A DNA stretch of 64,000 nucleotides from positions 9,717 through 73,716 of the IMG/VR virus record IMGVR_UViG_3300014204_000170; one strand, given 5' to 3'. The DNA comes from a virus. The notes under the pieces are model-generated. The model had not been told where the DNA came from. It searched no databases and saw only the letters and a list, made by a program, of their open reading frames with translations. How positions within the stretch are numbered: the stretch's first letter is position 1; each line of letters starts with the position of its first letter. The translations under genes and the position numbers were made by a program. Shown in pieces: positions 27,825 through 52,164 of this stretch.

Positions 27825-28199
27825 ATGCAAAATATACCAACAATTATAGAACAAACAATTAGCGTCTTAAGTGAAAAGTTTGGCGTAGTAGGAACACGAC
27901 TCTGGGCTGTATTAATTAAACAATCTTATATAGATGGATGGACAAACATAGCAGGAACAATTATATTCCTAATACTTATTATAGGAGGAATTATACTATT
28001 TAAAAGAGGTGATAAAGAATACAAAATGAAAGATAAATGGGATCATGACCCAAGTGGATGGTGGATATCGAGAATGGTTGTATTAACTTTTAGTTCAATA
28101 GGAATAATGTTTAGTATTACAGGAGCAATAAATGACTTTGCTAATCCAGAATATCAAGCAATTCAAACTATTTTATCAGCAACTAGTCAGCAAAAATAA
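27825..28199 (+). CDS. small membrane protein (2 TM helices)
   Basis: 124 aa with two hydrophobic segments. Confidence 0.45.
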   Translation: MQNIPTIIEQTISVLSEKFGVVGTRLWAVLIKQSYIDGWTNIAGTIIFLILIIGGIILFKRGDKEYKMKDKWDHDPSGWWISRMVVLTFSSIGIMFSITGAINDFANPEYQAIQTILSATSQQK

Positions 28200-30261: not shown

Positions 30262-30606
30262 ATGATAGACATAAACGGATTAGATTGTTGTGGAATTAAA
30301 GAAATCGTTGATATAGACAATTATACTGAAAATCCAAAACAGATAATATTAGATATATGTGAAGATTACTATAAGGAAGAACATATGTGTGCATTTTACA
30401 TATTCTCAGATATACAAAAGAAAAAAGCAGGAAAAAACTTAAAAAACTTCATTCAAAAAAATAAACTAGGATTAATAACATTATCACCAATAAGAATTAA
30501 CCCTAACTCAGGTAATTCATTAAGAGTCTACTTATGGACAATAGACAAAAAGAATCTTAAACAATATTGGCATAAAAACAATAATTACGATGTTGATGAA
30601 TATTAA
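30262..30606 (+). CDS. hypothetical protein
   Basis: 114-aa ORF. Confidence 0.4.
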   Translation: MIDINGLDCCGIKEIVDIDNYTENPKQIILDICEDYYKEEHMCAFYIFSDIQKKKAGKNLKNFIQKNKLGLITLSPIRINPNSGNSLRVYLWTIDKKNLKQYWHKNNNYDVDEY

Positions 30607-31783
30607 AAACTTATTATTAAAATATATGAATAAACAAAAAGAAAAAGAAAAAAAACCTCCATTAACTGAAAAAATACAACCATATACAGTTACATTTGGC
30701 TGTGATCCTGAATTCTTCTTTGAAAGAAAAGGTAAAATAATAGGCTCTGAAAAAGTAATAAACATAGAAAAAGGATTAACTGTTAAAAAAGATATAAGAA
30801 AAAATGTAAATGGTAGCACAGGCAATGGAAACGATAGTAAATTTATTGTAGATGGAGTTCAAGCTGAAATTAATCCAAAACCAGATACATGTAGAGCAAG
30901 ATTAGGTAATGAAATATCTCAATGCTTTAGAACATTATATGAAACAATAAAAGCAGATCCTGAATTATCTATAAATTTCTTACCAACAGTTAAAGTAAGC
31001 AAGGCAGAACTTATGTCTCTCAATGAAAAATCTCGCATATTTGGCTGTTCACCTAGCAAAAACGCTGATAAGAAATCACAAAATGTTGTTGCTTTAAAGG
31101 ATCCAGCAAAATATAAATATCGCAGTGCAGGAGGACACATACACTTAGGAGCAAGTGGATACGACACACAAGTCAAAAGTATTATGAAAGAACCTGCAAG
31201 ACTAGTCCAAATAATGGATATCTTAGTAGGAAACACTTGTGTATTAATAGACCGAGATCCAGGTAACAAAGAAAGACGCAAAGTATATGGTAGAGCAGGA
31301 GAATATCGCACTCCTATGTATGGAATAGAATACAGAACATTAAGTAACTTCTGGTTGAGAGCATATCCATTAATGTCATTTGTTATGAACCTATCAAGAT
31401 TATCTGTAGATGTAATGGCAAGTTCAATACCAGGAAGAGATTTTGAAAGAGAATTATTAAGTTTAGTAGACATAAAGAAAATTCGTAAAGCTATTAATAC
31501 AAATGATTTTAAATTAGCTTGGAATAATTTTCAAGCCATTAAAGGATTCATTGCTAGAACAATGGATAAAGGAGGAGATAATTTCCCATTAACAGCTAAT
31601 AATTTGGCAGCATTTGAATTTTTTGTATCAAAAGGTATAGATTTCTGGTTTAAAGAAGATCCAATTGAACACTGGATGAAAATTCCTGAAGGTCATACAT
31701 GTGGCTGGGAAAACTTCTTAATCAATGTAGTAACACCTGTAATGATAGAAGAAATTCCAAGTCCTACACCAGATGTAAAATAA
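30590..31783 (+). CDS. glutamine-synthetase-like amidoligase family protein (paralog 1)
   Basis: Shares the motifs FGCDPEFFFE, AEINPKP and GGHIHLGAS with the ORF at 38476-40143. This pattern is consistent with phage carboxylate-amine (amidoligase) enzymes. No search was run. Confidence 0.45.
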   Translation: MLMNIKNLLLKYMNKQKEKEKKPPLTEKIQPYTVTFGCDPEFFFERKGKIIGSEKVINIEKGLTVKKDIRKNVNGSTGNGNDSKFIVDGVQAEINPKPDTCRARLGNEISQCFRTLYETIKADPELSINFLPTVKVSKAELMSLNEKSRIFGCSPSKNADKKSQNVVALKDPAKYKYRSAGGHIHLGASGYDTQVKSIMKEPARLVQIMDILVGNTCVLIDRDPGNKERRKVYGRAGEYRTPMYGIEYRTLSNFWLRAYPLMSFVMNLSRLSVDVMASSIPGRDFERELLSLVDIKKIRKAINTNDFKLAWNNFQAIKGFIARTMDKGGDNFPLTANNLAAFEFFVSKGIDFWFKEDPIEHWMKIPEGHTCGWENFLINVVTPVMIEEIPSPTPDVK

Positions 31784-31785
31784 AA

Positions 31786-32130
31786 ATGAAAATTGCATTT
31801 GACATAGACGATACACTAATTATTCCTAGTGTAATTACAGAAGATAGAGATGTACCAAACTATGATACAATCACTATTTATAATTGGTTTCAAGCTCAAG
31901 GAAATCAAATGATACTCTGGTCAGGAAGTGGAATAGATTGGGCACAAACATGGGGAGAAAAATTAGGTCTTCAACCATTCACTGTTCAAAAAAAAGAAAA
32001 AGATTTATCAATAGATCTAGCTTTCGATGATTGTAATGTAGATCTAGCAAAAATTAACATTAAAGTAAAAAGAATTAATAACTCAATTAGTCGTAAAGAA
32101 TGGAATAACACTAAAAAAATCAATGAATAA
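31786..32130 (+). CDS. HAD-like hydrolase
   Basis: The true start is probably MKIAFDIDDTLIIP (DxDxT motif) at 31786, not the upstream in-frame ATG at 31699 reported in the ORF track. Confidence 0.5.
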   Translation: MKIAFDIDDTLIIPSVITEDRDVPNYDTITIYNWFQAQGNQMILWSGSGIDWAQTWGEKLGLQPFTVQKKEKDLSIDLAFDDCNVDLAKINIKVKRINNSISRKEWNNTKKINE

Positions 32131-32611
32131 TATAAAACCTCTATCACCAAAACAACAAATTCAAGAAGACAAAAGACTCGCAAAAGCAAAAATCAAACAA
32201 CAAAAAGAAGATGCAGATGAAAGAATAAAGAAACAAGAAGCAGTTAGAACAATCAAAAAAGTTCTTAATATATACAAAACAAATTTCAAAGATTTATTAA
32301 AATTAGCAAAAAAAGAAATACCAGCTAAAGGTATTTCAACAAAAGCATTACACACAATATTAGGAACAAAAATAAAACAAAAACCAAAAGAATGTAATCA
32401 TTGCCACATAAAAACAGAAAACAACACATCACTATGTAATGAATGTAAAAAAATACCAAAATGCGATAGTTGTGAAATTATAATGGGATACTGGGAAATT
32501 AACAATGACACCAAAGAAAAAGAATTACGATTTACTGCATTCGATAAACCGAGCCACTTAAAACCAACAATTTGTGAAGGATGTTACGAGATAGAACAAG
32601 AAGAAAAATAA
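32123..32611 (+). CDS. zinc-finger protein
   Basis: CNHCH...CNEC...CDSC...CEGC. Confidence 0.4.
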   Translation: MNNIKPLSPKQQIQEDKRLAKAKIKQQKEDADERIKKQEAVRTIKKVLNIYKTNFKDLLKLAKKEIPAKGISTKALHTILGTKIKQKPKECNHCHIKTENNTSLCNECKKIPKCDSCEIIMGYWEINNDTKEKELRFTAFDKPSHLKPTICEGCYEIEQEEK

Positions 32612-32742
32612 TATGAAAGAAATATATTATCTATTCGCAGTAATCTATACATTCATAATCTGGGGAATTGGATGGGGAATAGTGTCAATATTCCTCCCAA
32701 TCTTCCCATTAATAGACTTAGTTAAATACTTATTCAAATAAT

Positions 32743-32994
32743 ATGGAAATCAAATATTTAGAAGTATTATTAATGCCAAACGGAGAAATACTAAATAAAG
32801 GTAAAACAATAGGATATATAAATAACCTAGAAAAATATATCAAAAAAGAAAAAGATATATTAAAAGATTCATTTGTTAAATATCTCGTCGATAATGATAT
32901 TAGAAATGACAATGGATTAAAATCATTATTTGATCTTTTTACAGAATACCCACAAGAATGGGATAATTTTATAGAAGATTTAATAGCCTCATAA
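32743..32994 (+). CDS. hypothetical protein
   Basis: 83-aa ORF. Confidence 0.35.
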   Translation: MEIKYLEVLLMPNGEILNKGKTIGYINNLEKYIKKEKDILKDSFVKYLVDNDIRNDNGLKSLFDLFTEYPQEWDNFIEDLIAS

Positions 32995-32995
32995 T

Positions 32996-34192
32996 ATGAA
33001 AGAAATTACAACAGAAAAACTACCAATAAAAATGTGGTTAGAAGAAATTGAAGAAGGAGCAATGGAACAAATAAAACATTTAGCCAATCTTCCTTTTGCA
33101 TTTAAACATATAGCTATTATGCCTGATTCACACCAAGGATTCGGAATGGTAATCGGAGGAGTATGCGCAACTAAAGATGTAATATGTCCCAATATGGTTG
33201 GTGTGGATATTGGATGTGGAATGTGTGCAGTTAAAACAAATCTTACAGAAATAAATACAGAAACTCTTAAAATAATTATGGGAGAAATAAGAAAATATAT
33301 TCCAATAGGATTTAATAAACATAACACAACTCAAAACTCATCACTAATGCCATATATATTAAATCCAGAATATCATCCATCAGGAACATTATCAAAAACA
33401 TGTCCAATTGTAGCAAGAGAATTTGGAAATGCCTTATTATCTATAGGAACATTAGGAGGAGGAAATCACTTCATTGAAATTCAAAAAGGTTCAGATGGAC
33501 ACATATGGATAATGATTCACTCAGGAAGCAGAAATCTAGGAAAACAAGTAGCTGATCATTATAACAAATTAGCTATTAAATTAAATGAAAAATGGCATTC
33601 AAGTATCCCAAAAGAATGGGAACTAGCTTTCTTACCAATTAATAGCGAAGAAGGACAAGCATATCTAAAAGAAATGCAATATTGTGTAGACTTCGCTTTT
33701 GCTAATAGAAAATTAATGATGTCTCGCGTCATAAATTGCTTTAAAGAAATACTTAAAAGCGAAAACTTCAAAGAGCTAGAATTCATTAATATCGCTCATA
33801 ATTATGCATCACTCGAACACCATTTCGGTAAAGAGGTCTGGATACACCGTAAAGGGGCTACACTTGCTACACAAGACACTATCGGTATTATTCCAGGGTC
33901 GCAAGGTACAAAAAGTTATATCGTTAGAGGTAAAGGAAACATATTCTCCTTTAATTCCTGCTCACATGGAGCTGGTCGTAAAATGGGAAGAAAGGAAGCT
34001 GAAAGGACCCTTAATCTCGAAGAAGAAGTTAAAAAACTAAATGATCAAGGTATCCTGCACTCAATAAGAGGAACGAAAGAATTAGATGAAGCACCTGGAG
34101 CTTATAAAAACATAAATACAGTAATGAAAAATCAAGAAGATTTAGTCGATATTCTTGTAGAACTAACACCATTAGGAGTTATTAAAGGTTAA
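32996..34192 (+). CDS. rtcB: RtcB-family RNA ligase
   Basis: 398 aa with conserved RtcB blocks: MPDSHQGFG, HSGSRNLG, HNYASLEHHFG, GSQGT, and SCSHGAGR near the C-terminus. Confidence 0.8.
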   Translation: MKEITTEKLPIKMWLEEIEEGAMEQIKHLANLPFAFKHIAIMPDSHQGFGMVIGGVCATKDVICPNMVGVDIGCGMCAVKTNLTEINTETLKIIMGEIRKYIPIGFNKHNTTQNSSLMPYILNPEYHPSGTLSKTCPIVAREFGNALLSIGTLGGGNHFIEIQKGSDGHIWIMIHSGSRNLGKQVADHYNKLAIKLNEKWHSSIPKEWELAFLPINSEEGQAYLKEMQYCVDFAFANRKLMMSRVINCFKEILKSENFKELEFINIAHNYASLEHHFGKEVWIHRKGATLATQDTIGIIPGSQGTKSYIVRGKGNIFSFNSCSHGAGRKMGRKEAERTLNLEEEVKKLNDQGILHSIRGTKELDEAPGAYKNINTVMKNQEDLVDILVELTPLGVIKG

Positions 34193-34771
34193 ATTAACTA
34201 GTGTGTAAGGTTCTGGGCAGTTATTAATTTACAAAGAAGTTCGCAACAATAATGTCTGCCACGTGGAAACGTAATCCTCGTGAGACCAAGTTTATTAGAC
34301 AGTCAGCGTAAGCTGTTACATAAGGAAAATTAAAAAATATTAATATATATACGGATTGATCGTCAATATAGATATTAAAAATATTTAATTAGATATATAG
34401 TCAACTAAACACTTATAAGTAAATTAATTCTAACCCAGAGCCTTGCACACTAATAAATATATGACAAAATTAACATACATACTAATAGGATTAATTATAG
34501 GTATGCCAATAGGAGCAATAGCTATAATGTTAGGTTATTTATCAGGTAAAAAATAATTATTAATAATAGCACTAATCAACTTAAGATTAGGAATTACATA
34601 TGCCAGAATTAGAAGGAGTTTTATCAATCAAAGACTCAGAAGGAAATTTAATCGCAATAGTATACAACGACATTAAAAGAAAATCGCAAGTTTTCTTTAC
34701 AGTAAAAGAATGTGGAGCTGAAGATATTAAAATGTTATTAGAAGACTTATTAGTTAAAAATAATACATAAT

Positions 34772-35092
34772 ATGACCTGCTTAGCAGATAGATATTTAAT
34801 CCCTAAACAATTAAAGAAAACAACACATTACACAGATGAACAAAGAGCAAATGTAAAAATCCTTTATGAAAAAGGAAATAGCATTCGCTCCATATCTCGT
34901 GAAATACCAATGAGTCGAAGAATGGTACAATTTATACTTTTTCCAGAACGTGCATTATTAGCTAAAACAAACTTTGCCAAACGACAAAAAGACGGAAGAT
35001 ATAGATACACCACACAAACACAAAGTCAATTAGTTCAAGAAGTTAGAAGTCGAAAACGTAAAATGTTAGATAACTTAATTAAAAAAACATGA
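34772..35092 (+). CDS. hypothetical basic protein
   Basis: 106-aa ORF. Confidence 0.35.
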   Translation: MTCLADRYLIPKQLKKTTHYTDEQRANVKILYEKGNSIRSISREIPMSRRMVQFILFPERALLAKTNFAKRQKDGRYRYTTQTQSQLVQEVRSRKRKMLDNLIKKT

Positions 35093-35958
35093 AATACTTA
35101 GTTGGCATAACAGCCTCAAAAAGCAAAATTCAAAACTTCATAAACGATGCTTATATAAAAGCATTTACAACAGACAACACAACACCAATCATTGTTCCAA
35201 ATTTATTTGAAACAAAAAATGAAATTGTAACAAAAGAAGATAAAAAGAACCTACAAGCTAATATAATTAAATTAGCTGAAACACTAGACGCATTAGTTCT
35301 TTCAGGAGGAGTAGATTTAAATCCAGTTTTCTACAATAATAAAATAGAAGATTCATGTTCCTTTAATTTTCATAGAGATTATATGGAAACAGAATTAATC
35401 AAAGAATTCATTAAAAGAAAAAAACCAATATTAGGAATATGTAGAGGATTCCAACTTCTTGGACTGTCTTTTAACTTAAATTACTTTCAACAAGATATAT
35501 CAATCTCAAAAGAAAAACACAATGGAATACAAAGTGATATAAATGTTAGAACAGAACCAATGCATAGTGTATTTGTATTTGGTGAATTCAAAGAATATTG
35601 CAAAAAAATGGGAATGGAAGAACCAAAAATGCTCACAAACTCATGGCACGAACAAGGATTCACATTATTGCCAGATGGAAATAGAATCAAAAATAAAGAC
35701 ATAGAAAAATTTATAACAGGAACAGAGGAATTCAAAGATAAAACAAATCTAATACTAAATAGTTTTCCTGAAGTAAATGTAATAATGTCTACAAATTATG
35801 TAATAGAAGGATTTGAACATAAAACATTTCCAATATTAGCATTCCAAAACCATCCAGAAGAATACTCAAATAGTGTGGCGATAAACTATTTTATAGAAAA
35901 ATACATAATTAAACTCTATGAAGAAAAAAATAAAAAAACAACCGAAAAAACAACCTAA
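35089..35958 (+). CDS. peptidase C26 / class-I glutamine amidotransferase-like gamma-glutamyl hydrolase
   Basis: LVLSGGVDLNP, PILGICRGFQLLG (nucleophilic Cys) and FQNHPEE (His-Glu) are typical of GATase1/gamma-glutamyl hydrolases. Confidence 0.6.
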   Translation: MKYLVGITASKSKIQNFINDAYIKAFTTDNTTPIIVPNLFETKNEIVTKEDKKNLQANIIKLAETLDALVLSGGVDLNPVFYNNKIEDSCSFNFHRDYMETELIKEFIKRKKPILGICRGFQLLGLSFNLNYFQQDISISKEKHNGIQSDINVRTEPMHSVFVFGEFKEYCKKMGMEEPKMLTNSWHEQGFTLLPDGNRIKNKDIEKFITGTEEFKDKTNLILNSFPEVNVIMSTNYVIEGFEHKTFPILAFQNHPEEYSNSVAINYFIEKYIIKLYEEKNKKTTEKTT

Positions 35959-36364
35959 AAAACCTAAAGCAAAAAAAATACAATCGATCGATTTGTATGA
36001 CGCAGATCATCCACTAAGGAGAACAGCTATTGAAATAATAGAAAATATCATAGAACCATTAATGCAAAGAGGTATAAATGGAGAAAGATATTATAAATTA
36101 GAAGATGATCTAACATTAACAATGAATAAAAGATTATTAAGATTCCTCAAAAAACCAATAATCGGAGACATCAAAAAACAAAATAAATTAAAATTAAATG
36201 AAAATAGAAATCCAGATTGTGACTTTGATCCATATGGAGCTCATTTTGATATAGACGAAAACGATGAAGAAAATTTTGATGATAACGATGATGATAATAA
36301 TGATTTTACTTTAGGTGATGCATATGAAAACATATTAGGACCAAAAGGTTATCCATCATTTTAA
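35918..36364 (+). CDS. hypothetical protein with acidic Asp/Asn-rich tail
   Basis: 148-aa ORF. Confidence 0.35.
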   Translation: MKKKIKKQPKKQPKKPKAKKIQSIDLYDADHPLRRTAIEIIENIIEPLMQRGINGERYYKLEDDLTLTMNKRLLRFLKKPIIGDIKKQNKLKLNENRNPDCDFDPYGAHFDIDENDEENFDDNDDDNNDFTLGDAYENILGPKGYPSF

Positions 36365-36386
36365 TTAATAATCAAAAATAATCAAT

Positions 36387-36797
36387 ATGGGATTTGATTT
36401 AATGGGACAAAAAGCAAAAAACAAAAAAGGAGAATACTTCAGAAATAATGTATGGTGGTGGAGAAATCTATGGTTCTTTGTTTGCTTAAACTGCGGAAGA
36501 TTCCTAACAAGAGAAGAAATGGATTATGGTAATTGGAACGCAGGAAAAAAAATAGTAAAACCAAAAGCTGGAAAAATCGTAAAAAAACTAAAAGAAACAA
36601 TAGAAAACGGAACAGCTAAAAAATTTGAAATAGAAATATCTAAAATAATAATAACTGCAAAAATACACAACAGAAAACTAGAAAAAGGAATGACTGACCC
36701 AAATTATGAAATAAACGAACATTATCCATTCACGGTCGAAAACTTAAAAGGATTTATACAATTCGTAGAAAATAGTGGCGGATTTCGAATCTTTTAA
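36387..36797 (+). CDS. hypothetical protein
   Basis: 136-aa ORF. Confidence 0.35.
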   Translation: MGFDLMGQKAKNKKGEYFRNNVWWWRNLWFFVCLNCGRFLTREEMDYGNWNAGKKIVKPKAGKIVKKLKETIENGTAKKFEIEISKIIITAKIHNRKLEKGMTDPNYEINEHYPFTVENLKGFIQFVENSGGFRIF

Positions 36798-37344
36798 TAA
36801 CAAAAATAAAAAAAATAAAATGTGGAAATGCCCAAATTGCAATAATGAAGTAGACCATTTACAATACAGCGTAAACACTTGTTCAAATGAATATGGAACT
36901 GCAGATTTATCAGATAAAAAAGAAATAGGAAAAAGAAACATAGTATGTGATTATAATTCAGATGATTATGGAGATAGTGATTGGAATGGTGATCCTGAAT
37001 ACACATGCCCAGAATGTGACGATGAAATAGACCCAGAAGACTTAATATGGGAAAATGATAATGAGGAAAACGAAGAAGAAAAACCAAAAACAGAACCAGA
37101 ACCAGAAGAAACACTACATAAAATTATAACTCCATTAAAAAATATAATAAAAACAGACTTACCAAAATCAATAAAAGGTTCAATAATATGTAAAAATAAA
37201 AAATGTCTCCATATCTTCGTAGTCGAAGAAGAAAAATATAAATGTCTAGGAGATAATGATGAAGTAACATTTGAATGCCCAAAATGTTCAACATCAATGA
37301 CACATGAAGAATATGAAAACTTACTAGATAATGATTATTACTAA
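36775..37344 (+). CDS. zinc-ribbon protein with acidic C-terminus ending ...DNDYY
   Basis: Three CxxC...CxxC pairs. Confidence 0.4.
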   Translation: MADFESFNNKNKKNKMWKCPNCNNEVDHLQYSVNTCSNEYGTADLSDKKEIGKRNIVCDYNSDDYGDSDWNGDPEYTCPECDDEIDPEDLIWENDNEENEEEKPKTEPEPEETLHKIITPLKNIIKTDLPKSIKGSIICKNKKCLHIFVVEEEKYKCLGDNDEVTFECPKCSTSMTHEEYENLLDNDYY

Positions 37345-37346
37345 TT

Positions 37347-38501
37347 ATGATAGAAAAAAAACTAAAAATTGATTTATCTCCACTTTGGAATGAAGAAATA
37401 GGTACATTCACAATAAGATTTCTAAATATAAATGAAAAAGAAAAAAGAATTTTAGCCCAAAGAATTAAAGATGTTGCTAAGCAAGCAAGAATCAGAAGTT
37501 TAAGAGGACCAAACATTCAAGATATCTATGAAACCTTAATGGAAATAAATCCTATAATTTTTGGAGAATACAATCAAAATTATATCCATAGAACAATAAA
37601 TGGATATAAAACATTCAACAAAACTAACTCAAGAACACTTGATGGTTATTTCTTTCATGAATTATGTAAAGCAATATATTTAATAAATTGCTTAAAAAGA
37701 GACTTAAATAAACAAGAAATAAACTCTATTGCTTATTTAACATGTCAAAGTTGGGATAAAGTAATACATTACACGGATCAACATTACCAAACTAGACATG
37801 AAGAAGAAATAGAAAGAAGAAACATCATAGAAGATATAGGAATAGATGACATTAAAAGAGCAAGAGAACATGCAGAAGAAAACGGAGCAGATAGAATACC
37901 AGATGGAGTATTTACAAGAGAACCAGAAAATAATGAAGAAGAAAACAATCAATTTAGTGTAATAGAAACAGGAATACTAAATGAAATAATAGATGAAAGA
38001 CAAATACCTACAATGAGAACATTTGAAGGAATAACATTCGAAGAAAGAACATTTAGAACAAATGAATTCGAAGAAGCAACAAGAGAAATACCTGGAAGAC
38101 AAATTAATAGAGAAAGACACACAAGGGGATCAAATCTTTATATAGATAGAGCAATAACAGAAATACAAGAATTAGAATTACAACAAGAAGGTGTAGAAAG
38201 AATACCAAATCCATATGCAATAGGAAGTGCAAATTGGAGAGAACTAGAAGAAAGTAAAATAGTAAGAATAAGAACAATAAGAGACAGAATAAATCATCTA
38301 AATCATGAAATAAACCAAAGAAATCTAGAACAAAACCCTAATAATAGATTTGTTGAAGATTTTAGAATAGAAACACAACAAATAGTACCAGCACAAATAC
38401 CAAACGAAAGAGAAACAATAAGATACTCCCCAACAATAAGACTAACACCAAATAGATACAATACAAATAGAGTATATGATCCATTCAACAATGACAATTA
38501 A
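37347..38501 (+). CDS. hypothetical Glu/Arg-rich protein
   Basis: 384-aa ORF. Confidence 0.4.
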   Translation: MIEKKLKIDLSPLWNEEIGTFTIRFLNINEKEKRILAQRIKDVAKQARIRSLRGPNIQDIYETLMEINPIIFGEYNQNYIHRTINGYKTFNKTNSRTLDGYFFHELCKAIYLINCLKRDLNKQEINSIAYLTCQSWDKVIHYTDQHYQTRHEEEIERRNIIEDIGIDDIKRAREHAEENGADRIPDGVFTREPENNEEENNQFSVIETGILNEIIDERQIPTMRTFEGITFEERTFRTNEFEEATREIPGRQINRERHTRGSNLYIDRAITEIQELELQQEGVERIPNPYAIGSANWRELEESKIVRIRTIRDRINHLNHEINQRNLEQNPNNRFVEDFRIETQQIVPAQIPNERETIRYSPTIRLTPNRYNTNRVYDPFNNDN

Positions 38502-40143
38502 AAAATTAAAAAAATTTATTAACAATATAATTATGCCAAATACAAAAAAAGAATTTGAATTTAAAATAGGAGCAGATCCTGAATTTGTTTTAACTATGCA
38601 AGGTAGAAAAGTAGATGCAAAACAAACCATGCAATTAGTTTTAAATAAAAAACCAGGATTTAAACCAACGAGAGACGATATGGGTTTTGATGTGGATCCA
38701 TTTGGAAATATAGGATGGGATGGAGCATCATCAACAGCAGAAATAAGACCAAAAGCAAGTAATACACCACAAGAAGTTGTAAATAATCTAGGAGGAATGT
38801 TTAAAGCTTTCGTAAAACATATAAGATTATGTGATATGTCAACAATATCAGAATATAGTTCAGTAGGAGGACATATTCACCTAGAAATTCCAAAAGGAGA
38901 AAAATGGTCAATAGAAAAAAAGAACACACTTCACAGAAGAATGGCTTCATTTTATTTACCACTATTAATCTCAGAAAATAAAACAAACCTAAACTTAAGA
39001 TTAAAACAAACTTACGGAGCACTAAAGGACAATAGAATAGAACAAAAATTCAAATATGAAGATGGATCTCCAGGATTCACATATGAATTTAGATGTCCTT
39101 CAGCTGAATGGTTAACAACACCAAAACTTGCTCAAGCAACAATGGCTTACATGGCAGTAATATATCATGAAATTTTAAAACATCCAAAAAACTTTACAAA
39201 ATTTAATGATATAGTTTATAAAAGTGATAAACAAGGAGACGCATTACAAACACTAGCAATCATGGAATTTGATATATTAACACAAAGTATATTAAATAAA
39301 GTTAAAAAATACATAAGAACATTCGAAATGTATGAATATTATAAAAATGAAATTGAATATCTATTTAATCCTAAACAGGTGATTAAAGATAAACAAAAAG
39401 CAGATTATAATATTGCAATAGGATGGAATCTAATAGGAAAAACAATTCCAAAGAAATCAGAAATCTTATCATCAAAGAAAAAAATTCAAGGAATAGCTGC
39501 TAAAAAAGATTTCGATAACCTAAAAGCTGTAATGAATATTCACTATAACGCTGACACAAATGTAGGACTTTTTGCAGATAGCTTAAAAGATAGAGTTGCT
39601 GCTTTCAATTGGAAATTAAAAAACAACTATTTCTTATTCGGAATGAGAAAAGGAATCACAACAATAATAGCTAGAAATCTAAAAAAAGAATATCTAACAG
39701 GTCAAAAAATAATCAAAACAGTTCTAGAAAAAGAACATATAGATAGATTATTTGATAAAATGGAAACAAAATTTAATAATAATAATGGAGTATTAAATAA
39801 TGCTACATTAGATTTTATTACAGGAAAAGTCAAAGATATGAGAGAATCAGTAATAGTAATAGGAATTCCATATTCAATGAGAATAGAAGAAAATATAAAA
39901 CCATTCTTAAATTTTATTTGGACACTTGAAAAAGGAGAAATCCCAAAAATAAATAAAAAAGATGAAATTAAATTAATCAATGATGTCGATTTGCCATTAG
40001 AGCAAAAAGGTGAAATTTATAAAATCTTAACAAAACAAATGGAGACACCACAAGAAATTATTATGGATGCAGGATCACACAGCTTACGCGCACATGAAAA
40101 TGCATTACATGAAATAATATGTGAAACAGAAAACAATTATTAA
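38476..40143 (+). CDS. glutamine-synthetase-like amidoligase family protein (paralog 2)
   Basis: IGADPEFVL, AEIRPKA and GGHIHLEIP match paralog 1. 555 aa with a C-terminal extension. Confidence 0.45.
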   Translation: MIHSTMTIKKLKKFINNIIMPNTKKEFEFKIGADPEFVLTMQGRKVDAKQTMQLVLNKKPGFKPTRDDMGFDVDPFGNIGWDGASSTAEIRPKASNTPQEVVNNLGGMFKAFVKHIRLCDMSTISEYSSVGGHIHLEIPKGEKWSIEKKNTLHRRMASFYLPLLISENKTNLNLRLKQTYGALKDNRIEQKFKYEDGSPGFTYEFRCPSAEWLTTPKLAQATMAYMAVIYHEILKHPKNFTKFNDIVYKSDKQGDALQTLAIMEFDILTQSILNKVKKYIRTFEMYEYYKNEIEYLFNPKQVIKDKQKADYNIAIGWNLIGKTIPKKSEILSSKKKIQGIAAKKDFDNLKAVMNIHYNADTNVGLFADSLKDRVAAFNWKLKNNYFLFGMRKGITTIIARNLKKEYLTGQKIIKTVLEKEHIDRLFDKMETKFNNNNGVLNNATLDFITGKVKDMRESVIVIGIPYSMRIEENIKPFLNFIWTLEKGEIPKINKKDEIKLINDVDLPLEQKGEIYKILTKQMETPQEIIMDAGSHSLRAHENALHEIICETENNY

Positions 40144-40163
40144 TTAAATGAATAAAAACAATT

Positions 40164-41570
40164 ATGTGTGGAATAATCGCAGGATTCAATAAAAGAACTC
40201 CTAAAAATAAAGACAAAAAAGCAATAAATGCAAAACCAATAAATGATTTTATTCTTAATCAATATGAAGACCAATACAATAGAGGTCAAAAAGGATTTGG
40301 AATCATTCGAATCGAAAAAAATGGAAATATAGAAATAGACAGAGCCACAGAACCTACAAAATTTCTATTAGATTTATATCTTAAACCATCAACTATGATA
40401 ATTGCCCATCACAGAACACCAACATCTACAGAAAATAAAATACAACAAACGCATCCAATTAAAATATCAAATAAAAAATTAAAATTTGATTATTATGCAG
40501 TTCATAATGGAATGATAAGCAATGATGAAGAATTAAAGAAAAAACACGAAAAATTAGGATTCGAATACACAACAAAATGTTTCGAATCAGTAAATCAATA
40601 CTACAAAACAAACAAAACAGAAAAATGGAATGATTCAGAAGCAATAGCTATAGAATTAGCATTATTCATAGAAGGAAAAATTAAAACAGTAAGAACAGAA
40701 AATGGAGCAGCATTTATAATTCTACAAGTAAACAAAAAAACAAACCTAGCTCAAAAATGTTTCTTTGGAAGAAATGGTTTTAATAGTATATTGAATATAT
40801 GTAAATCTAAAGGAAATTTACTAATCTCAAGTGAAGGAAAAGGAGAAGAAGTAAAAGAAGGTAAATTATTTTCATTTCACACAAGAGATAATAAAATGAA
40901 ATTAACTTCAATAGATATTCCATTCAAAAAAGAAGAAAAACCAATAGAAATTAAAACAGAAGCACCAAAAGAAATAGAATCTACAATGCCAAAAAATGTA
41001 GCTATTGTACCCGTAGAAAACGAAAAACCTAAAGTATTTGATAAGGTTATTACAGCAGTACGTAGTTGGATAGACATAGAAAAAGATCCAATTTTAGACT
41101 TAGATTTCGATGCAGCCGTATTTACTGATAAAAATTACAAAGAAACAATAAGTGAAGACTTCAAATATAAACTAAAAAATTGCACAACAGAAGAAATTAA
41201 AAGTACATTAGATGACTCATTAGATGAAGAAATTGCAAAAATAGAAGAATTATGTACAAACTTTAAAGAAATCTGTCAATGTAACAAAATAGAACTACCT
41301 GAAAGAAATTTCTTCATTTCACAAATAGCAAATTTATTCAGAACAATGGAAGCAATAACAGATATAGCTTCAGATGAATTTGCAATAGTTCAACAAAAAG
41401 AAGATGAAGAAACAATAGCTGATTATAATACAGGATTTGAATTAAACGATGATGGAAGTTATGGAAAAGGTCCTAAAAAATATGATAGCTCAAAACACAT
41501 AAATGTTGCCAATCATTACGGTCAAGGAATATATGATGACGATTATAACGATTTTAACAGGTTTGGATAA
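40164..41570 (+). CDS. class-II (Ntn) glutamine amidotransferase domain protein
   Basis: Starts MCGIIAGF (Cys2 nucleophile) and has AVHNGMISNDEEL, the HNG-I-x-N motif of GATase_2. Carries a long acidic C-terminal extension ending ...IYDDDYNDFNRFG. Confidence 0.6.
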   Translation: MCGIIAGFNKRTPKNKDKKAINAKPINDFILNQYEDQYNRGQKGFGIIRIEKNGNIEIDRATEPTKFLLDLYLKPSTMIIAHHRTPTSTENKIQQTHPIKISNKKLKFDYYAVHNGMISNDEELKKKHEKLGFEYTTKCFESVNQYYKTNKTEKWNDSEAIAIELALFIEGKIKTVRTENGAAFIILQVNKKTNLAQKCFFGRNGFNSILNICKSKGNLLISSEGKGEEVKEGKLFSFHTRDNKMKLTSIDIPFKKEEKPIEIKTEAPKEIESTMPKNVAIVPVENEKPKVFDKVITAVRSWIDIEKDPILDLDFDAAVFTDKNYKETISEDFKYKLKNCTTEEIKSTLDDSLDEEIAKIEELCTNFKEICQCNKIELPERNFFISQIANLFRTMEAITDIASDEFAIVQQKEDEETIADYNTGFELNDDGSYGKGPKKYDSSKHINVANHYGQGIYDDDYNDFNRFG

Positions 41571-41581
41571 AAATTTATTCT

Positions 41582-41995
41582 ATGTACCCAACAAAAGAAC
41601 AAATTCTAACTGTAAAACCGAGAATTAAAACATCAATTAAAAAAGCAACATTAATATGGAAAAAAAACAATCTTAAAGAATGGAAAAACTTATCTCAAAA
41701 AGAACAATTAAATAGATTAGAAAGATTAATCATATGGCTTAATTGGACAAACGATAAAAAAGATAACCTAAAAATAAAATTAGGAAAAGAATATCAATAT
41801 AATCCACAAACACAAACAATATATCTAGACAAAAATCATGCAAGTATAATATCAGCACTTCATGAATTAGGTCATCATATATTTGGAACAAGTGAATTAA
41901 AAACATGTAGATGGTCAATATGGCTATTTATAGAATGCTTTCCTGAATTATATAAAAATCTAAAATGGGATAGACACTTATTAATCAAAAAATAA
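41582..41995 (+). CDS. small HExxH motif protein (possible metallopeptidase)
   Basis: ALHELGHHIFG. Confidence 0.3.
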   Translation: MYPTKEQILTVKPRIKTSIKKATLIWKKNNLKEWKNLSQKEQLNRLERLIIWLNWTNDKKDNLKIKLGKEYQYNPQTQTIYLDKNHASIISALHELGHHIFGTSELKTCRWSIWLFIECFPELYKNLKWDRHLLIKK

Positions 41996-42059: not shown

Positions 42060-42368
42060 ATGCAATTCAAAATTCCCATAGGAAGTTCAATCGATAGAGC
42101 AGAAAGTTCAGATATAATAAAGATTAGAGTCCCAAATACTAAATTTTGGGTCTTAGGAGAAAAAATTTCCAAATATAATTGGAAAATGTCTCTAATTGAT
42201 CCACAATCGAACTACAAGGAATTAATCAAAGAAAATATATCAACAAAAGCATTCGCAATATTATCAAGTATGATATTGAAGTCTCCATTCCCATACAAAG
42301 GGAAAAGAGCAAACAGTTCAAAAACTATTAAAAATTTCGTTAATAAAAATATAAAAAACATATGTTAA
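42060..42368 (+). CDS. hypothetical protein
   Basis: 102-aa ORF. Confidence 0.3.
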   Translation: MQFKIPIGSSIDRAESSDIIKIRVPNTKFWVLGEKISKYNWKMSLIDPQSNYKELIKENISTKAFAILSSMILKSPFPYKGKRANSSKTIKNFVNKNIKNIC

Positions 42369-42820
42369 AAGAAAACACAAAAGAAAACGCAATAGCATTA
42401 AATGAAAAAGTAGCAAATTACAAATTATTAGCTCGTGAAGCATTAAGAATGGAATTAATCACTCCCCGTCTTTCAAAAATTGCTAATCTAGAAGTAAGTA
42501 TTAAATCAGTAATGGATTGTAAAGCTGCTATTGAACACGAGATTTTAGTAGAAAACTACGAAATCTCAAAACTAGACACTGAACACCCAGATTATCTAGA
42601 AATGAAAAAAGAAAAAGAAGAAGCAATTATAGCATATAACGAAGAAGTAACTTTACACACAGAAGGATTAAAGGAATTAGAAGAAGTAATGAAAGAACAA
42701 AAAGAAGGTATTGCTAAAATTGAAAGTGGAGAAACAAAAGTATCTATTGAAGCGTTAAATGAACTTGTATCAAAAATGATTGAACAAAGTGCACTAAATG
42801 CAGTAGCAGAAGTAAAATAA
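42362..42820 (+). CDS. hypothetical coiled-coil protein
   Basis: 152-aa ORF, last gene of the plus-strand block. Confidence 0.4.
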   Translation: MLKENTKENAIALNEKVANYKLLAREALRMELITPRLSKIANLEVSIKSVMDCKAAIEHEILVENYEISKLDTEHPDYLEMKKEKEEAIIAYNEEVTLHTEGLKELEEVMKEQKEGIAKIESGETKVSIEALNELVSKMIEQSALNAVAEVK

Positions 42821-43961: not shown

Positions 43962-44978
43962 TTAAACTAACCATTCAGGATTATTAACATACCACTGAAC
44001 AATAGTTTTTAATGATTCTTCAATTGAGAATGGATATTTCCAACCAATCTCTAGCATTTTTCCATTAGTTAAACCGTAATGCATGTCATGACCCTTTCTT
44101 ACTGTATTCGAATAAAATGATATAACTTCATAATTAAGTTCTTTTCCTATTATTCTAGCAACCAATTGAGCAAATTCCAAGTTATTTAATTGTTTTTCTC
44201 CTACAATATTAAATTTATTAGGTTTTAAATCACCATTTTCATAACTTGCAGGTTTTACATTTTTAATAATATATAAAATTGCATCAGCTTGATTACGCAC
44301 ATCTATATAAAATCTAGATCCAAAAGTTCCATCCTCTTTTGCATATATAGGCATTTTTTTACCTTCTTGAATATACTTTACAATTTTAGGAAGGAATTTA
44401 ACGGCATCCTGTCTTGTTCCTATTAAATTCATTGTGTTTGTAATAATTACAGGAACTCCATAGGTTCTCCAATAAGAAGTAGCTATAGCTTCTTGTGCGG
44501 CCTTTGAAGCAGCATAAGGATTACTTGGTAGTATTGCACTCCATTCTTTATGGGGTTCATTATTAACCATAGCTCCATAAACTTCATCCGTGGAAATTTG
44601 AATGAAAACTTCAGGTTTAATTTCTCTAGCTAACTCTAATATATTTAATATTAAAGCTACATTATTCTCAACAAAAGGAACAGGATCTTGTATGGACTGT
44701 TCTACATCTGACATAGAAGCAATATTAATAATATAATCTATCTTACCTATTCTTTGTTTTGTTATAGGTGTAAAAGGTGACTCTAAATCATGAGTAAGAA
44801 CTTCAACACGTTCTTTGTTTTTTTGGTAAACTTCACTATCTAAAATTCGTTCTGGAATACCCTTATGTTTCCAAGATGCAATACCCACTATATCCCAATC
44901 TGTAGTCTCAAGAATATGATCTACAAAATGTGAACCTGAGAATCCTCCAATACCTGTTAGTAATACTCTTTTATTCAT
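43962..44978 (-). CDS. rmlB: dTDP-glucose 4,6-dehydratase-like NAD-dependent sugar dehydratase/epimerase
   Basis: LLTGIGGFSGSHFV Rossmann motif and PYAASKAAQE (YxxxK). Confidence 0.65.
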   Translation of the reverse strand: MNKRVLLTGIGGFSGSHFVDHILETTDWDIVGIASWKHKGIPERILDSEVYQKNKERVEVLTHDLESPFTPITKQRIGKIDYIINIASMSDVEQSIQDPVPFVENNVALILNILELAREIKPEVFIQISTDEVYGAMVNNEPHKEWSAILPSNPYAASKAAQEAIATSYWRTYGVPVIITNTMNLIGTRQDAVKFLPKIVKYIQEGKKMPIYAKEDGTFGSRFYIDVRNQADAILYIIKNVKPASYENGDLKPNKFNIVGEKQLNNLEFAQLVARIIGKELNYEVISFYSNTVRKGHDMHYGLTNGKMLEIGWKYPFSIEESLKTIVQWYVNNPEWLV

Positions 44979-45967: not shown

Positions 45968-46268
45968 ATATAAATATTCATAATTAATAATTTAAACAGC
46001 ACAGTGGTTGGGAGTTGAACCCAAATGGATGATTTTGGAGATCTTCCTATGACCGTCACCCACCATAATGTGGGTAATCTAATACCCACCCAAAACTATT
46101 CTAATTCAGTCTTAACTTCTTCTTCTACGACAGACTCTTCAACTGGTGTTTCAACAACTGGTGTTTCAACAACTTCTGGTTCTGCTCCTATTTTTAAATC
46201 TTCATTCATAAATTTTTTATTTTTAACTTTTGATAATCATTCGACCAGTATTAATATAATAACATAGT

Positions 46269-46532
46269 TTAGAAAAAATCAAAATCATAATCTTTAATAC
46301 AGGAATTACTAACATACTCTTTTGATGTGCGAAGTTTTTTAATTGTTTTTCTAGCATCTCTCATTATCTTTGTTCGAGCACTTCGTGTTTTTCTTTTATA
46401 TTCTTTTAAATACTCCTTATAAGAATTTTTACCATGATTGATTTTTTCTTCTGTTTCAATCTCTATTTCTTTTTTACAATTATTAATTCTACTATTCATA
46501 AAATAGAGGTTAGATAACCATAATAATATCAT
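46269..46532 (-). CDS. hypothetical basic protein
   Basis: 87-aa ORF. Confidence 0.3.
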   Translation of the reverse strand: MILLWLSNLYFMNSRINNCKKEIEIETEEKINHGKNSYKEYLKEYKRKTRSARTKIMRDARKTIKKLRTSKEYVSNSCIKDYDFDFF

Positions 46533-46791
46533 CCTCTAGTGTCATCATATAAGTCTTTCCATCAACTTGTACAGCTTTACCATATTGGAAAGTAACTACA
46601 TCATCTTTTTTTACACACATTGGCAATAATTCTCCATTGTTGTTTTTTTTACCTTCACCAACTTCAAATACTTTACCTGTCATGTATTCACCCATTTCTT
46701 CTTCTTTAGCCAAGATAACTCCTGAGGCTGTTTTTTTCTCATTTCGATCTACTTCTATTAAAACTCTATTTCCTAATAATTTGATACTCAT
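46510..46791 (-). CDS. groES: co-chaperonin GroES
   Basis: 93 aa; LGNRVLIEVDRNEKKTASGVILA...GKVFEVGEG fits the Cpn10 pattern. Lies adjacent to GroEL. Confidence 0.6.
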   Translation of the reverse strand: MSIKLLGNRVLIEVDRNEKKTASGVILAKEEEMGEYMTGKVFEVGEGKKNNNGELLPMCVKKDDVVTFQYGKAVQVDGKTYMMTLEDDIIMVI

Positions 46792-51230: not shown

Positions 51231-51485
51231 TTAAAGTATTATTGTTTTAACTTGTTTATAATCTTGTTTTTCACTTACATCTTCTGCTAATTCATGAGGA
51301 CCTTCCCACCAGACACTTTCATCATTGTAATCCAAGCACATGTCTACGATAGTTCCACTTGGTACAATATCACAATAACCACCTTCATATCCATTTGTCA
51401 TAACTATTGTATCTTCTGGTAATTTTTCAAGAAACTTAATTAATTGTTTTATGTTCATTATATTCACCAATTTCTGGCTTATCAT
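51231..51485 (-). CDS. hypothetical protein
   Basis: 84-aa ORF overlapping the upstream gene's end. Confidence 0.3.
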   Translation of the reverse strand: MISQKLVNIMNIKQLIKFLEKLPEDTIVMTNGYEGGYCDIVPSGTIVDMCLDYNDESVWWEGPHELAEDVSEKQDYKQVKTIIL

Positions 51486-52164
51486 TATTAATAATCAAAT
51501 ATTCATTTCCTGGCTCCAAAGTATCAATAAAAAATATATCATCAGTAATCTGGATATGTTTTTGGTGAGTATGTCCAACAACCTGTTTAAATCCTACTAT
51601 TTTATCTTCTAGTAAACTTTTAGGTCTAACCCAGAAAGGTGATTGAGTTACATCATCTCCATAATTACTATGATTTTTCCCTTCTATAAAACAAAATGAT
51701 CTAGGGTAATCAAGAAAAATACGATTAACTGAATCTTCTATAGTTTTGATATTTCCCCCACTATTACGCAACCAAGTTTTAGTTATTCCAGCATGAGTAA
51801 ATACCCAATTTTTATAAGAATAACAAGCTTGAAGCATTCCATCTTCTATTGCTAGTTCTAATAGAGAAGAAATTTTAGATTTTTTATCAGCTTGATATCC
51901 ACTGTAGTGTTCTCCGACATATGATAAATATTGATAATCATGATTTCCAAGTAATAAAACAACCTTATCTGGACTACCATACTTAAAAGCCAAGATATTT
52001 TTAAAATTCTCTAACTGTTGTTCGAATGGTACCTCAAAACTATCAAAATAATCTCCAAGAAAAATCACCTTACTAAAGGGTTGTTTAATTATTTCTTGCC
52101 ACTTATTTAATCCATGGACATCTCCTAAGGCAATTATTTTATTTTTTACTTGATTTTTTTTCAT
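51436..52164 (-). CDS. calcineurin-like metallophosphoesterase (Ser/Thr phosphatase family)
   Basis: IIALGDVHG, FLGDYFDSFE, LLLGNHDYQ, THAGIT and VVGHTHQ phosphoesterase motifs. Confidence 0.65.
   Translation of the reverse strand: MKKNQVKNKIIALGDVHGLNKWQEIIKQPFSKVIFLGDYFDSFEVPFEQQLENFKNILAFKYGSPDKVVLLLGNHDYQYLSYVGEHYSGYQADKKSKISSLLELAIEDGMLQACYSYKNWVFTHAGITKTWLRNSGGNIKTIEDSVNRIFLDYPRSFCFIEGKNHSNYGDDVTQSPFWVRPKSLLEDKIVGFKQVVGHTHQKHIQITDDIFFIDTLEPGNEYLIINNDKPEIGEYNEHKTIN

Follow-up and report, generated by a model that had tools for sequence, protein, structure and literature searches.

A conserved four-gene core with a predicted carboxylate–amine ligase and class-II amidotransferase in an uncultivated phage

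An uncultivated phage with a genome of ~100-110 kb carries, in the 64,000-nucleotide stretch analysed here (the window), two genes for predicted carboxylate–amine ligases as well as genes for a putative class-II amidotransferase and a Peptidase C26. A preliminary description took ligase, amidotransferase and hydrolase for a triad and a candidate novel ligation-tagging system. The locus raises the question of which genes belong together, what bond their products may make, and how the system relates to those already known.

Genes that stay together

We assessed the conservation of the locus (Table 1) over 74 related metagenomic phage lineages, with linkage counted on deduplicated lineages. E adjoins D in 57/57 lineages, F follows D-E in 45/45, and the zinc-ribbon gene (Zn) is found upstream of D in 44/52. 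In the window, the stop of D and the start of E are separated by 20 nt and the stop of E and the start of F by 11 nt, all on the same strand. In contrast, A was within 10 kb of D in only 7/25 lineages and C26 in 5/25. The conserved unit is a strictly co-linear four-gene core, Zn-D-E-F; A, the second ligase, and a gamma-glutamyl hydrolase, which is C26 or, in some relatives, GGACT, occur only sporadically and are accessory. The proposed triad therefore does not hold as a unit: across the related phages D-E-F is constant, but A and C26 come and go. Nor do related loci keep RtcB as a neighbour, or most of the small Cys-rich ORFs that lie between the enzymes. Gene calls on the ENA contig place the gene that follows A at 31786-32130. 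The two small genes past F were found in 16/39 (102 aa) and 29/39 (152 aa) loci by tblastn, and a Pfam search returned no match for either.

Table 1. Features of the locus (positions in the window)
Feature	Position	Strand	Description
A	30596..31783	+	395/397 aa; phiEco32-like-phage-type COOH-NH2 ligase; start 30590 or 30596; accessory
C	35089..35958	+	289 aa; Peptidase C26 / class-I GATase-fold gamma-glutamyl hydrolase; accessory
Zn	36820..37344	+	174 aa; 2 zinc ribbons and acidic linker; conserved upstream neighbour of D
D	38476..40143	+	555 aa; long-form COOH-NH2 ligase
E	40164..41570	+	468 aa; predicted class-II (Cys-Ntn) glutamine amidotransferase domain at residues 1-255
F	41582..41995	+	137-aa orphan; invariant HExxHH..G..E..C motif
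Two small genes past F	42060..42820	+	102 and 152 aa; frequent followers of F

Predicted enzymes of the core and its accessories

The four ORFs of the preliminary description, and the motifs quoted from them, are all present in the translations. Both ligases pass the gathering score of Pfam PF14395 COOH-NH2_lig (cut-off 25 bits), D with 48.9 bits and A with 40.6 bits (E 2.3e-10), and A also matches phrog_3815 'COOH.NH2 ligase' (E 1.2e-40; PHROG). The family-invariant residues G-x-DPE, AE, GGHxH and ExR are kept in both; the motifs are GADPEF at residue 32, AEIRPK at 88 and GGHIHL at 131 in D, and GCDPEF at 37, AEINPK at 92 and GGHIHL at 181 in A. The first reading of A and D as GS-like carboxylate-amine ligases agrees with these scores and with the GS-like fold of D: similarity to PF14395 is significant, and the catalytic residues of the enzymes are retained. 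Their description as paralogues needs qualification, because they are related by hhalign (E 1.2e-6, probability 91%) but reach only E 0.011 in BLASTP, and are deep paralogues only.

In D, a GS-like catalytic domain at the N-terminus is followed by a conserved C-terminal domain of alpha/beta type and an acidic tail. Its fold resembles YbdK, glutamate-cysteine ligase, PafA/Dop and glutamine synthetase, and the nearest folds include glutamate-cysteine ligases and the amine-specific GS homologues GmaS and 1-naphthylamine GS. A sequence-level search of the PDB with D gave no match.

E alone stays under the Pfam cut-off (GATase_6, 21.3 vs 27), though its profile and fold bear out the earlier assignment to the class-II Ntn amidotransferases. 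The profile of its family (43 homologues) matches PurF at E 1.5e-5 and GFAT at 2.9e-4, and in Foldseek the AF2 model of E matches the glutaminase domain of GlmS (E 7e-12), EgtC (2e-9) and also PurF. E starts with MCGI and has HNGMISN at residue 114. Invariant in the 43 homologues are M1 C2 G3, R40 G41, H82 H83 R84 P86 T87, H97 P98, H114 N115 G116 and N156 D157 E159, of which the R, N-G and D residues would correspond to the glutamine site of GlmS. E is, on this profile and model, predicted to carry a class-II Cys-Ntn glutamine amidotransferase domain. Past residue 255 a disordered linker leads to a helical region (325-423), and the protein ends in a tail that is disordered, acidic and rich in aromatic residues; this C-terminal half is variable and poorly conserved, and E has neither a conserved synthase-docking domain nor a fused synthase domain.

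The tail is net acidic in 40/40 homologues of D and in 32/43 of E. Acidic Tyr-containing C-termini had been proposed as substrates, and such ends do exist (..DNDYY, ..YDDDYNDFNRFG). However, neither the sequence of the C-terminus nor its terminal residue is conserved among the homologues of D or E, and on that account the proposal does not hold.

C, described earlier as a Peptidase C26 gamma-glutamyl hydrolase, indeed passes the Peptidase_C26 cut-off in Pfam (81.6 vs 20.5, E 9.2e-23), with GICRGFQ at residue 116 and NHPEE at 254. In the PDB it matches 3fij (8e-7) and 7d4r, a 'probable glutamine amidotransferase' (1.3e-5), with the ICRG nucleophile aligned. In NCBIfam it matches gamma-glutamyl-CDP-amidate hydrolase (4.9e-12, far under the cut-off) and, weakly but over the full length, PuuD (1.3e-5; 24.8 vs a cut-off of 266 bits); a match to the GatD model is also weak (6e-4). 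GGACT takes the place of C26 in one lineage (L003), and A and a hydrolase tend to be found in the same lineages (4/7 vs 2/18, Fisher p 0.03). A small membrane protein, kin of that at 27825-28199 of the window, sits between A and GGACT in L003.

The most likely start of Zn is 36820 (MWKCPNC), corrected from 36775. Eight Cys and G26 are invariant in its 55 homologues, and Y16 and E24 are kept in 90% or more of them. The 152 cluster representatives found among 1.84 billion proteins are all of 95-245 aa and include no fusion, to a ligase or otherwise. Pfam and NCBIfam gave generic zinc-ribbon matches only, the LysW zinc-ribbon model reached only E 0.07-0.09, and the C-terminus is conserved neither in sequence nor in its terminal residue. 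Zn is a candidate partner, carrier or target. Pfam assigns no domain to any of the 354 homologues of F. Invariant residues of the protein are Y2, P3, W26, S88, H94, E95, H98, H99, G102, E105, C109 and H132. Its only two family matches are weak (M78, E 0.07; phrog_87, E 1.3e-4), and the PDB held no significant match; judged by its motif, F is a candidate minimal zinc metallohydrolase.

Reactions that the module may catalyse

The predicted function of the module is most likely the ATP- and glutamine-dependent formation of a gamma-glutamyl or amide bond. Our preferred reading, which we regard as evenly poised, is of a divergent phage amidoligase/class-II amidotransferase system with Zn-D-E-F as the working unit. 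D would activate a carboxylate at the expense of ATP, giving an acyl-phosphate, and then join this to an amine; the group activated is most likely a glutamate-type gamma-carboxylate, as it is in all the closest structural relatives of D. E would bind glutamine or a gamma-glutamyl moiety at its N-terminal Cys, and most likely acts as a glutaminase whose ammonia serves to amidate the carboxylate activated by D. F may trim or release the product, and the zinc-ribbon protein could be a partner, a scaffold or a target, roles suggested by motifs. A and its hydrolase (C26 here, GGACT elsewhere) would be an optional pair, one member writing and the other erasing gamma-glutamyl-amine bonds. Candidates for the acceptor are small molecules, peptides, cell-wall precursors and proteins. 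In favour of this reading are the family and fold assignments, the constant gene order, the gamma-glutamyl-cleaving accessories and the kin clusters of other phages; folds, active-site residues and linkage are observed, while the chemistry, the pairing of D with E and the direction in which E works are inferred.

Against the preferred reading, E shows poor conservation of its C-terminal half and no conserved domain for docking to a synthase, and the window contains neither of two ligases of the phiEco32-type cluster, the PF12224 amidoligase and the ATP-grasp enzyme. Stand-alone class-II Ntn enzymes of the EgtC kind are gamma-glutamyl hydrolases and EgtC is among the fold matches of E, which speaks against an ammonia-donor role. 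E might thus be an EgtC-like hydrolase in a pathway where the ligases add a transient gamma-glutamyl 'handle' to a small amine (a polyamine, amino sugar or amino-acid derivative), other enzymes modify the intermediate, and E, C26 or GGACT finally remove the handle. This logic has precedents in PuuA/PuuD, EgtA/EgtC and BtrJ/BtrG, and we think of it as possible though not likely. It is favoured by the EgtC match, by the lack of a synthase domain in E, by the Peptidase C26 with its PuuD match and the GGACT of L003, and by the glutamate-cysteine ligases, GmaS and 1-naphthylamine GS near D. However, no oxidase, decarboxylase or transferase that would act on an intermediate is conserved in the core, dedicated gamma-glutamyl hydrolases occur in only ~1/4 of lineages, and the invariable D-E adjacency fits a synthase-glutaminase pair more than two enzymes that open and close a pathway. 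Another reading is a Pup/LysW-type conjugation, in which D joins the carboxylate of a protein and an amine, with the protein on either side of the bond and Zn or an acidic tail in its place, E deamidates Gln to Glu to prime the reaction as Dop does for Pup, and F processes or removes the tag. The conservation of a small acidic zinc-ribbon neighbour with nearly invariant Y16-E24-G26, the HExxH protein that rounds off the module and the acidic tails are in line with such a scheme, yet we consider it quite unlikely: no Pup-like protein with a conserved C-terminal Gln or Glu was seen, the C-termini of Zn, D and E are unconserved, the LysW match is marginal and a fusion of Zn to a ligase was not found.

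MurT/GatD performs the glutamine-dependent amidation of a Glu carboxylate, and similar amidation or peptide modification of cell-wall precursors could alter the host envelope and exclude superinfecting phages. Iyer et al. 2009, as quoted in PMC10580990, suggested such a function for the amidoligase/GATase genes of phiEco32, and the GatD match of C and the small membrane protein of L003 would suit it. It is nevertheless very unlikely here, as a Mur-ligase, a transferase and an export component are absent from the window, and D, E and F have no membrane, export or cell-wall family matches in Pfam, PHROG or NCBIfam. Most unlikely is a modification of nucleic acid, either an amino acid or amide group attached to a DNA base as a hypermodification, or tRNA amidation, for example in place of GatCAB on Glu-tRNA(Gln). 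GatCAB uses the same chemistry, gamma-carboxyl activation followed by glutamine-derived ammonia, and the phage has 22 tRNA genes (including 2 tRNA-Gln, 1 tRNA-Glu, 1 tRNA-Asn and 1 tRNA-Asp), the RNA-repair genes RtcB and HAD_SAK_2, a MazZ-like dATP/dGTP diphosphohydrolase domain and SAM-cycle genes. In related phages, however, these genes are unlinked to the core (RtcB is in 6/29 loci before deduplication), and the window showed neither a hydroxymethylase nor a base kinase or transferase. In addition, E. coli phages carry related systems, while E. coli has direct GlnRS and AsnRS.

Relation to known systems

Amidoligase/GAT-II clusters were predicted in phiEco32-like phages by Iyer et al. 2009 (quoted in PMC10580990), and PF14395 is named for these phages. 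This prediction, together with the A homologues in 311 phage records (26-32% identity, tblastn), is at odds with the system being novel in kind. D and E had no detectable match in 50,697 phage records. The literature searched gave no experimentally established function for any family member.

Compared with the YbdK/GCS2/glutamine synthetase superfamily, D has 8-14% identity and a different C-terminal domain. PafA/Dop differ in that the module has no Pup-like tag, conserved C-terminal Gln/Glu or proteasome context, and its candidate deamidase is an Ntn amidotransferase instead of a ligase paralogue. E shares the N-terminal Cys and fold of EgtC and the GlmS/PurF N-terminal domains, but has no fused synthase domain and, as its C-terminal half, a variable helical and disordered extension. 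As in PuuA/PuuD, a ligase of the GS superfamily (A) occurs together with a hydrolase, either Peptidase C26 or GGACT; here, however, the ligase is PF14395 and not GS type I, and there are no oxidase or dehydrogenase steps.

The phiEco32-type cluster is present in Kuravirus, LUZ24-like Pseudomonas phages, 50-kb Vibrio phages and Salmonella phage 7-11, and the neighbours of A-type ligases in kin phages are amidoligase, GAT-II, ATP-grasp and gamma-glutamyl cyclotransferase genes. Cluster and module have in common the ligase family, the pairing of ligases with a class-II Ntn amidotransferase and an enzyme that cleaves gamma-glutamyl bonds, and the placing of all genes on one strand in a non-structural region. 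Besides lacking PF12224 Amidoligase_2 and the ATP-grasp ligase, the present module differs in having two PF14395 paralogues, a conserved C-terminal domain of ~250 aa in D, Peptidase C26 where the cluster has GGCT, and as invariant partners Zn and F, neither with a family assignment. It is a divergent member of a predicted kind of system and not a new kind; what is new is the make-up of its conserved unit.

Predicted ligases, amidotransferase and partner proteins

Two proteins encoded in the window, A and the long-form D, matched PF14395 ('Phage phiEco32-like COOH.NH2 ligase-type 2') in a Pfam HMM search, with scores of 40.6 and 48.9 bits, respectively, against a gathering cut-off of 25; A also matched phrog_3815 of PHROG at 1.2e-40. 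The search bears out the preliminary description, which had placed both in the glutamine synthetase (GS)-like ligase family, and all open reading frames and motifs quoted there were found in the window. The fold of the ligase D is GS-like, not ATP-grasp. In an alignment of nine A-type, Kuravirus, Vibrio-phage and D-type sequences, G-x-DPE, AE, GGHxH, YG and ExR are invariant, and G-x-DPE, AE, GGHxH and ExR are also invariant within 40 D homologues. By analogy with the superfamily, these acidic residues, His and Arg would be catalytic in A and D; both proteins are GS-superfamily ligases with the conserved residues intact, and are predicted to join carboxylates to amines with ATP. The two had been described as paralogous, which they are, but the relationship is deep and they are not recent duplicates (BLASTP E 0.011; hhalign of the D family versus A, E 1.2e-6). 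No match was found among PDB sequences searched with the D-family profile and with A, the PF14395 family is without a solved structure, and a literature search brought up no published enzyme assay of any PF14395 member. For the C-terminal domain of D, Pfam gave nothing usable at E<=1.

E, the amidotransferase encoded downstream of D, begins with MCGI, which puts a candidate catalytic Cys directly after the initiator Met. Invariant in 43 E homologues are M1-C2-G3, R40-G41, H82-H83-R84-P86-T87, H97-P98, H114-N115-G116 and N156-D157-E159. As a single sequence E remained under the Pfam cut-offs (GATase_6, 21.3 versus 27; GATase_7, 13.2 versus 25); some of its homologues have a precomputed PF13522 match. 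The E family profile matched PurF (1.5e-5), the alignment taking in HHRTPT and HNG, and GFAT (2.9e-4). In a Foldseek search, an AF2 model of E (pLDDT 83) matched the glutaminase domain of GlmS (7e-12; TMt 0.68 on 1xff), as well as PurF and EgtC. The glutamine-site residues of GlmS, namely R73, N98-G99 (the oxyanion hole) and D123 (in the DSE motif), presumably have their counterparts in R84, N115-G116 and D157 of E. The invariant residues, the PurF/GFAT profile match and the GlmS fold match confirm the earlier class-II Ntn assignment, and sequence and model together show a Cys-Ntn amidotransferase domain whose glutamine/gamma-glutamyl pocket is intact. No synthase (acceptor) domain is fused to this glutaminase domain. 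In residues 256-468 a helical hairpin stands between a disordered linker and a disordered tail; conservation of this part is poor and Pfam has no match for it; a search of the C-terminal half against Pfam at E<=1 likewise gave nothing usable.

The preliminary description had also called C a Peptidase C26, and indeed it scored 81.6 bits against a Pfam cut-off of 20.5. Its GICRGFQ aligns, nucleophile Cys included, with ICRG of the solved homologues 3fij and 7d4r, and the HPE motif at residues 255-257 would provide the His-Glu pair of the active site. C is a predicted gamma-glutamyl hydrolase of the Cys-His-Glu type with a Peptidase C26/class-I GATase fold.

Two small proteins accompany the enzymes. 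F (137 aa), encoded after E, has invariant H94-E95-x-x-H98-H99, G102, E105, C109 and H132, and from this motif it looks like a minimal zincin. None of its 354 homologues has a Pfam domain, F itself gave nothing usable against Pfam at E<=1, and its profile found only chance myoglobin matches in PDB (E ~0.05). Zn (174 aa), the zinc-ribbon acidic protein encoded upstream of D, probably starts at 36820. It carries eight invariant Cys that form two ribbons; G26 is also invariant, Y16 and E24 are nearly so, and the linker is acidic. Its 152 relatives among 1.84 billion representative proteins are all small, with no fusion to another domain, and nothing usable was found for Zn in Pfam at E<=1.

The conserved core in related loci

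Searching D and E by tblastn against 50,697 phage records gave no detectable match; hundreds of metagenomic homologues exist for both. D as a single sequence found nothing in IMG/VR, and an alignment-based scan found relatives. In all, 97 loci with a D relative were collected: from IMG/VR and GTDB genomes, from JGI/ENA metagenomes and through look-ups of exact proteins. We mapped the window proteins onto them by tblastn and collapsed near-identical loci into 74 lineages; denominators below are lineages with enough flank. E directly followed D in 57/57 lineages and F followed E in 45/45, so that the D-E-F linkage is absolute. Zn preceded D in 44 of 52 lineages, a lower bound set by the sensitivity of tblastn. 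A, in contrast, was within 10 kb of D in only 7/25. The gamma-glutamyl-cleaving enzyme, which is Peptidase C26 in the window and GGACT in locus L003, is accessory only (5/25 and 1/25 lineages, respectively). These counts identify Zn-D-E-F as the conserved unit, and A with the hydrolase as an optional sub-module. The triad of ligase, class-II amidotransferase and Peptidase C26 proposed earlier does not, therefore, recur as a unit among the relatives. Within the optional part, a gamma-glutamyl hydrolase tended to accompany A, being present in 4/7 lineages with A versus 2/18 without it (Fisher p 0.03, on small numbers).

Two further genes were considered as members and rejected, as each is found in a minority of relatives only: RtcB (6/29 loci, before deduplication), and a 384-aa open reading frame that in the window is inserted between Zn and D and that few relatives have.

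The acidic, Tyr-containing C-termini proposed earlier as substrates (..DNDYY and ..DDDYNDF..) are present in the window but unconserved, the ends of homologues being unrelated. We rejected them as conserved substrates, since no terminal residue or motif is kept. Composition is conserved: the last 30 residues are net acidic in 40/40 D homologues and 32/43 E homologues. Such a pattern lends no support to specific sites of C-terminal tagging.

A cellular origin of D was rejected: among 185,579 species genomes just 4 have it, in each case on a contig of a CPR/DPANN MAG (loci L018-L021 from GTDB; Shapirobacteria, Paceibacterota, Aenigmatarchaeota and one unclassified bacterial MAG). JBAYUY010000002.1, the one D-bearing MAG contig that was checked, proved identical to IMG/VR locus L011, a contig of 38,636 bp, and these contigs look like mis-binned phage. 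Many of the 97 loci come from 0.1-um groundwater fractions. L033-L040, L051 and L097 are from such fractions of Hainich groundwater, many metagenomic relatives being from groundwater fractions of ultra-small cells. CPR bacteria are possible hosts.

The phage genome around the module

The genome to which the window belongs is that of a tailed phage (see table); its terminase shares no more than 29% identity with that of any phage record. Contigs bearing D relatives measure 86-103 kb, and an identical E protein was also found on a 109,737-bp ENA contig. The phage also has genes for an SNF2 helicase and a primase-helicase, many auxiliary genes, and 22 tRNA genes. Among the tRNAs are tRNA-Ile(UAU), three tRNA-Leu, and two each of tRNA-Gln, tRNA-Lys and tRNA-Arg.

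Features of the window discussed in the text
Feature	Position	Strand	Remark
Major head protein	1941-3218
Portal	7257-9425
Large terminase	9465-10910
tRNA array	20137-23968	+	21 tRNA genes in <4 kb
A, PF14395 ligase	30596-31783
RtcB ligase	32996-34192	+	E 5e-113
C, Peptidase C26	35089-35958
Zn, zinc-ribbon acidic protein	36820-37344
384-aa open reading frame rich in Glu, Arg, Asn, Ile	37347-38501	+	no family match; overlaps D start by 26 nt
D, PF14395 ligase, long form	38476-40143
E, class-II Ntn amidotransferase	40164-41570
F, small HExxH protein	41582-41995
NAD-dependent epimerase/dehydratase and glucose-1-phosphate-type nucleotidyl transferase	43962-44978 and 58418-59119	-	sugar-nucleotide genes
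tRNA-Trp	45999-46069	-	apart from array
GroES and GroEL chaperonin pair	46510-46791 and 47500-49146	-	phage-encoded
Calcineurin-like phosphoesterase	51436-52164	-
HAD_SAK_2 'Swiss Army Knife RNA repair' domain	52170-52592	-
118-aa protein, PF18909	52662-53018	-	dATP/dGTP diphosphohydrolase N-terminal domain (MazZ-like), 6.7e-19
S-adenosylmethionine synthetase and S-adenosylhomocysteine hydrolase	53123-54136 and 54820-56028	-	SAM-cycle enzymes
AAA_28 (NadR-kinase-like) protein	54308-54820		between the two SAM-cycle genes
Small protein with type-IV-pilin N-terminal methylation motif and adjoining SPFH/Band-7 protein	56366-56725 and 56727-57596	-	motif 1.3e-9
LAGLIDADG homing endonuclease	57701-58366	-	amid replication/metabolism genes

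The module sits within a dense plus-strand block from ~27.8 to 42.8 kb. Directly upstream of this block lies a perfect hairpin with a 17-bp stem (27566-27604), which may be a terminator or boundary element; scans for promoters and terminators gave results not above those for shuffles. RtcB, HAD_SAK_2 and the phosphoesterase look like RNA-repair genes and probably counter host tRNA nucleases. The MazZ-like protein may be a sign that nucleotide pools are manipulated or that a non-canonical base is used; a PurZ-like gene was not seen within the window.

Possible functions and relation to known systems

D would form an acyl-phosphate on a glutamate-type carboxylate, followed by coupling to an amine or ammonia. 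E is most likely its glutaminase partner, because the invariant adjacency of the two genes is typical of synthase-glutaminase pairs. A, together with C26 or GGACT, would write and erase gamma-glutamyl-amine bonds. The main rival to a glutaminase role is that E acts as an EgtC-like gamma-glutamyl amidohydrolase and that the gamma-glutamyl group is a transient handle in a pathway; both the fold match to EgtC and the freestanding glutaminase domain fit this reading. Modification of cell-wall precursors and modification of nucleic acids are less likely: neither in the window nor in related loci does gene linkage support the former, and the latter has no such support either.

Protein tagging of the Pup or LysW type is also less likely, although it would account for both Zn and the HExxH partner. 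In pupylation (PafA/Dop/Pup) a small tag protein is ligated to lysines through its conserved C-terminal Gln/Glu, whereas Zn, D and E keep no C-terminal residue or motif; D resembles PafA/Dop at the level of the fold only. The zinc-ribbon carrier of the LysW system has a conserved acidic C-terminal tail ending in Glu and its ligase is ATP-grasp, whereas the C-terminus of Zn is variable, its match to Zn_ribbon_LysW reaches only E 0.07-0.09, and D is of the GS-like fold. We regard it as improbable that Zn-D-E-F is a phage protein-conjugation system functionally analogous to pupylation or LysW-type carrier chemistry. In such a system D would link an amine to a carboxylate of Zn or a host protein, E would prime by deamidation or give the amide nitrogen, and F would remove or process the adduct. 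If true, it would be the first case of post-translational amide tagging by the machinery of a bacterial virus, possibly one of ultra-small groundwater bacteria.

Hundreds of sequenced phages have clusters of amidoligase and class-II amidotransferase genes, among them phages of E. coli, Pseudomonas and Vibrio that serve in therapy and as models. Such clusters were predicted more than 15 years ago, and in the literature searched an experimental function came up for none. The lineage described here cuts the system down to a strictly co-inherited, minimal set, compact enough for joint expression and product screening. If the system proves to make a new metabolite, to alter a precursor of the cell wall or to tag proteins, it would represent a new route of phage host takeover.

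The preliminary description had proposed a novel system. However, homologues of the A-type ligase occur in 311 phage records, including Kuravirus/phiEco32-like phages, 7-11, LUZ24-like Pseudomonas phages and 50-kb Vibrio phages, and Iyer et al. 2009, as quoted in PMC10580990, described the phiEco32-type phage system. The kind of system is, therefore, already known, as a computational prediction only. PMC10580990 (2023), in the passage on the idea of Iyer et al., gives it as cell-wall modification against superinfection and says that the function is still to be explored; general reasoning from the Aravind laboratory takes linked ligases to perform successive peptide ligations. Literature on amidoligase, phiEco32, Kuravirus and PF14395 yielded genome annotations only, and no experimental function.

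In Bas88, Vibrio WD615 and UFV-P2 the A-type ligase lies beside a PF12224 amidoligase, a class-II amidotransferase, an ATP-grasp ligase and a gamma-glutamyl cyclotransferase. These clusters share with D-E the linkage of a COOH-NH2 ligase to a class-II amidotransferase. The phiEco32-type cluster has GGCT/GGACT or an equivalent as its gamma-glutamyl-cleaving enzyme, where the window has Peptidase C26. PF12224 (Amidoligase_2) and the ATP-grasp ligase, present in locus L001 and UFV-P2, had no match among the window proteins scanned. What is new here is, thus, not a category but a minimal, invariant four-gene core, two of whose partners have no family assignment.
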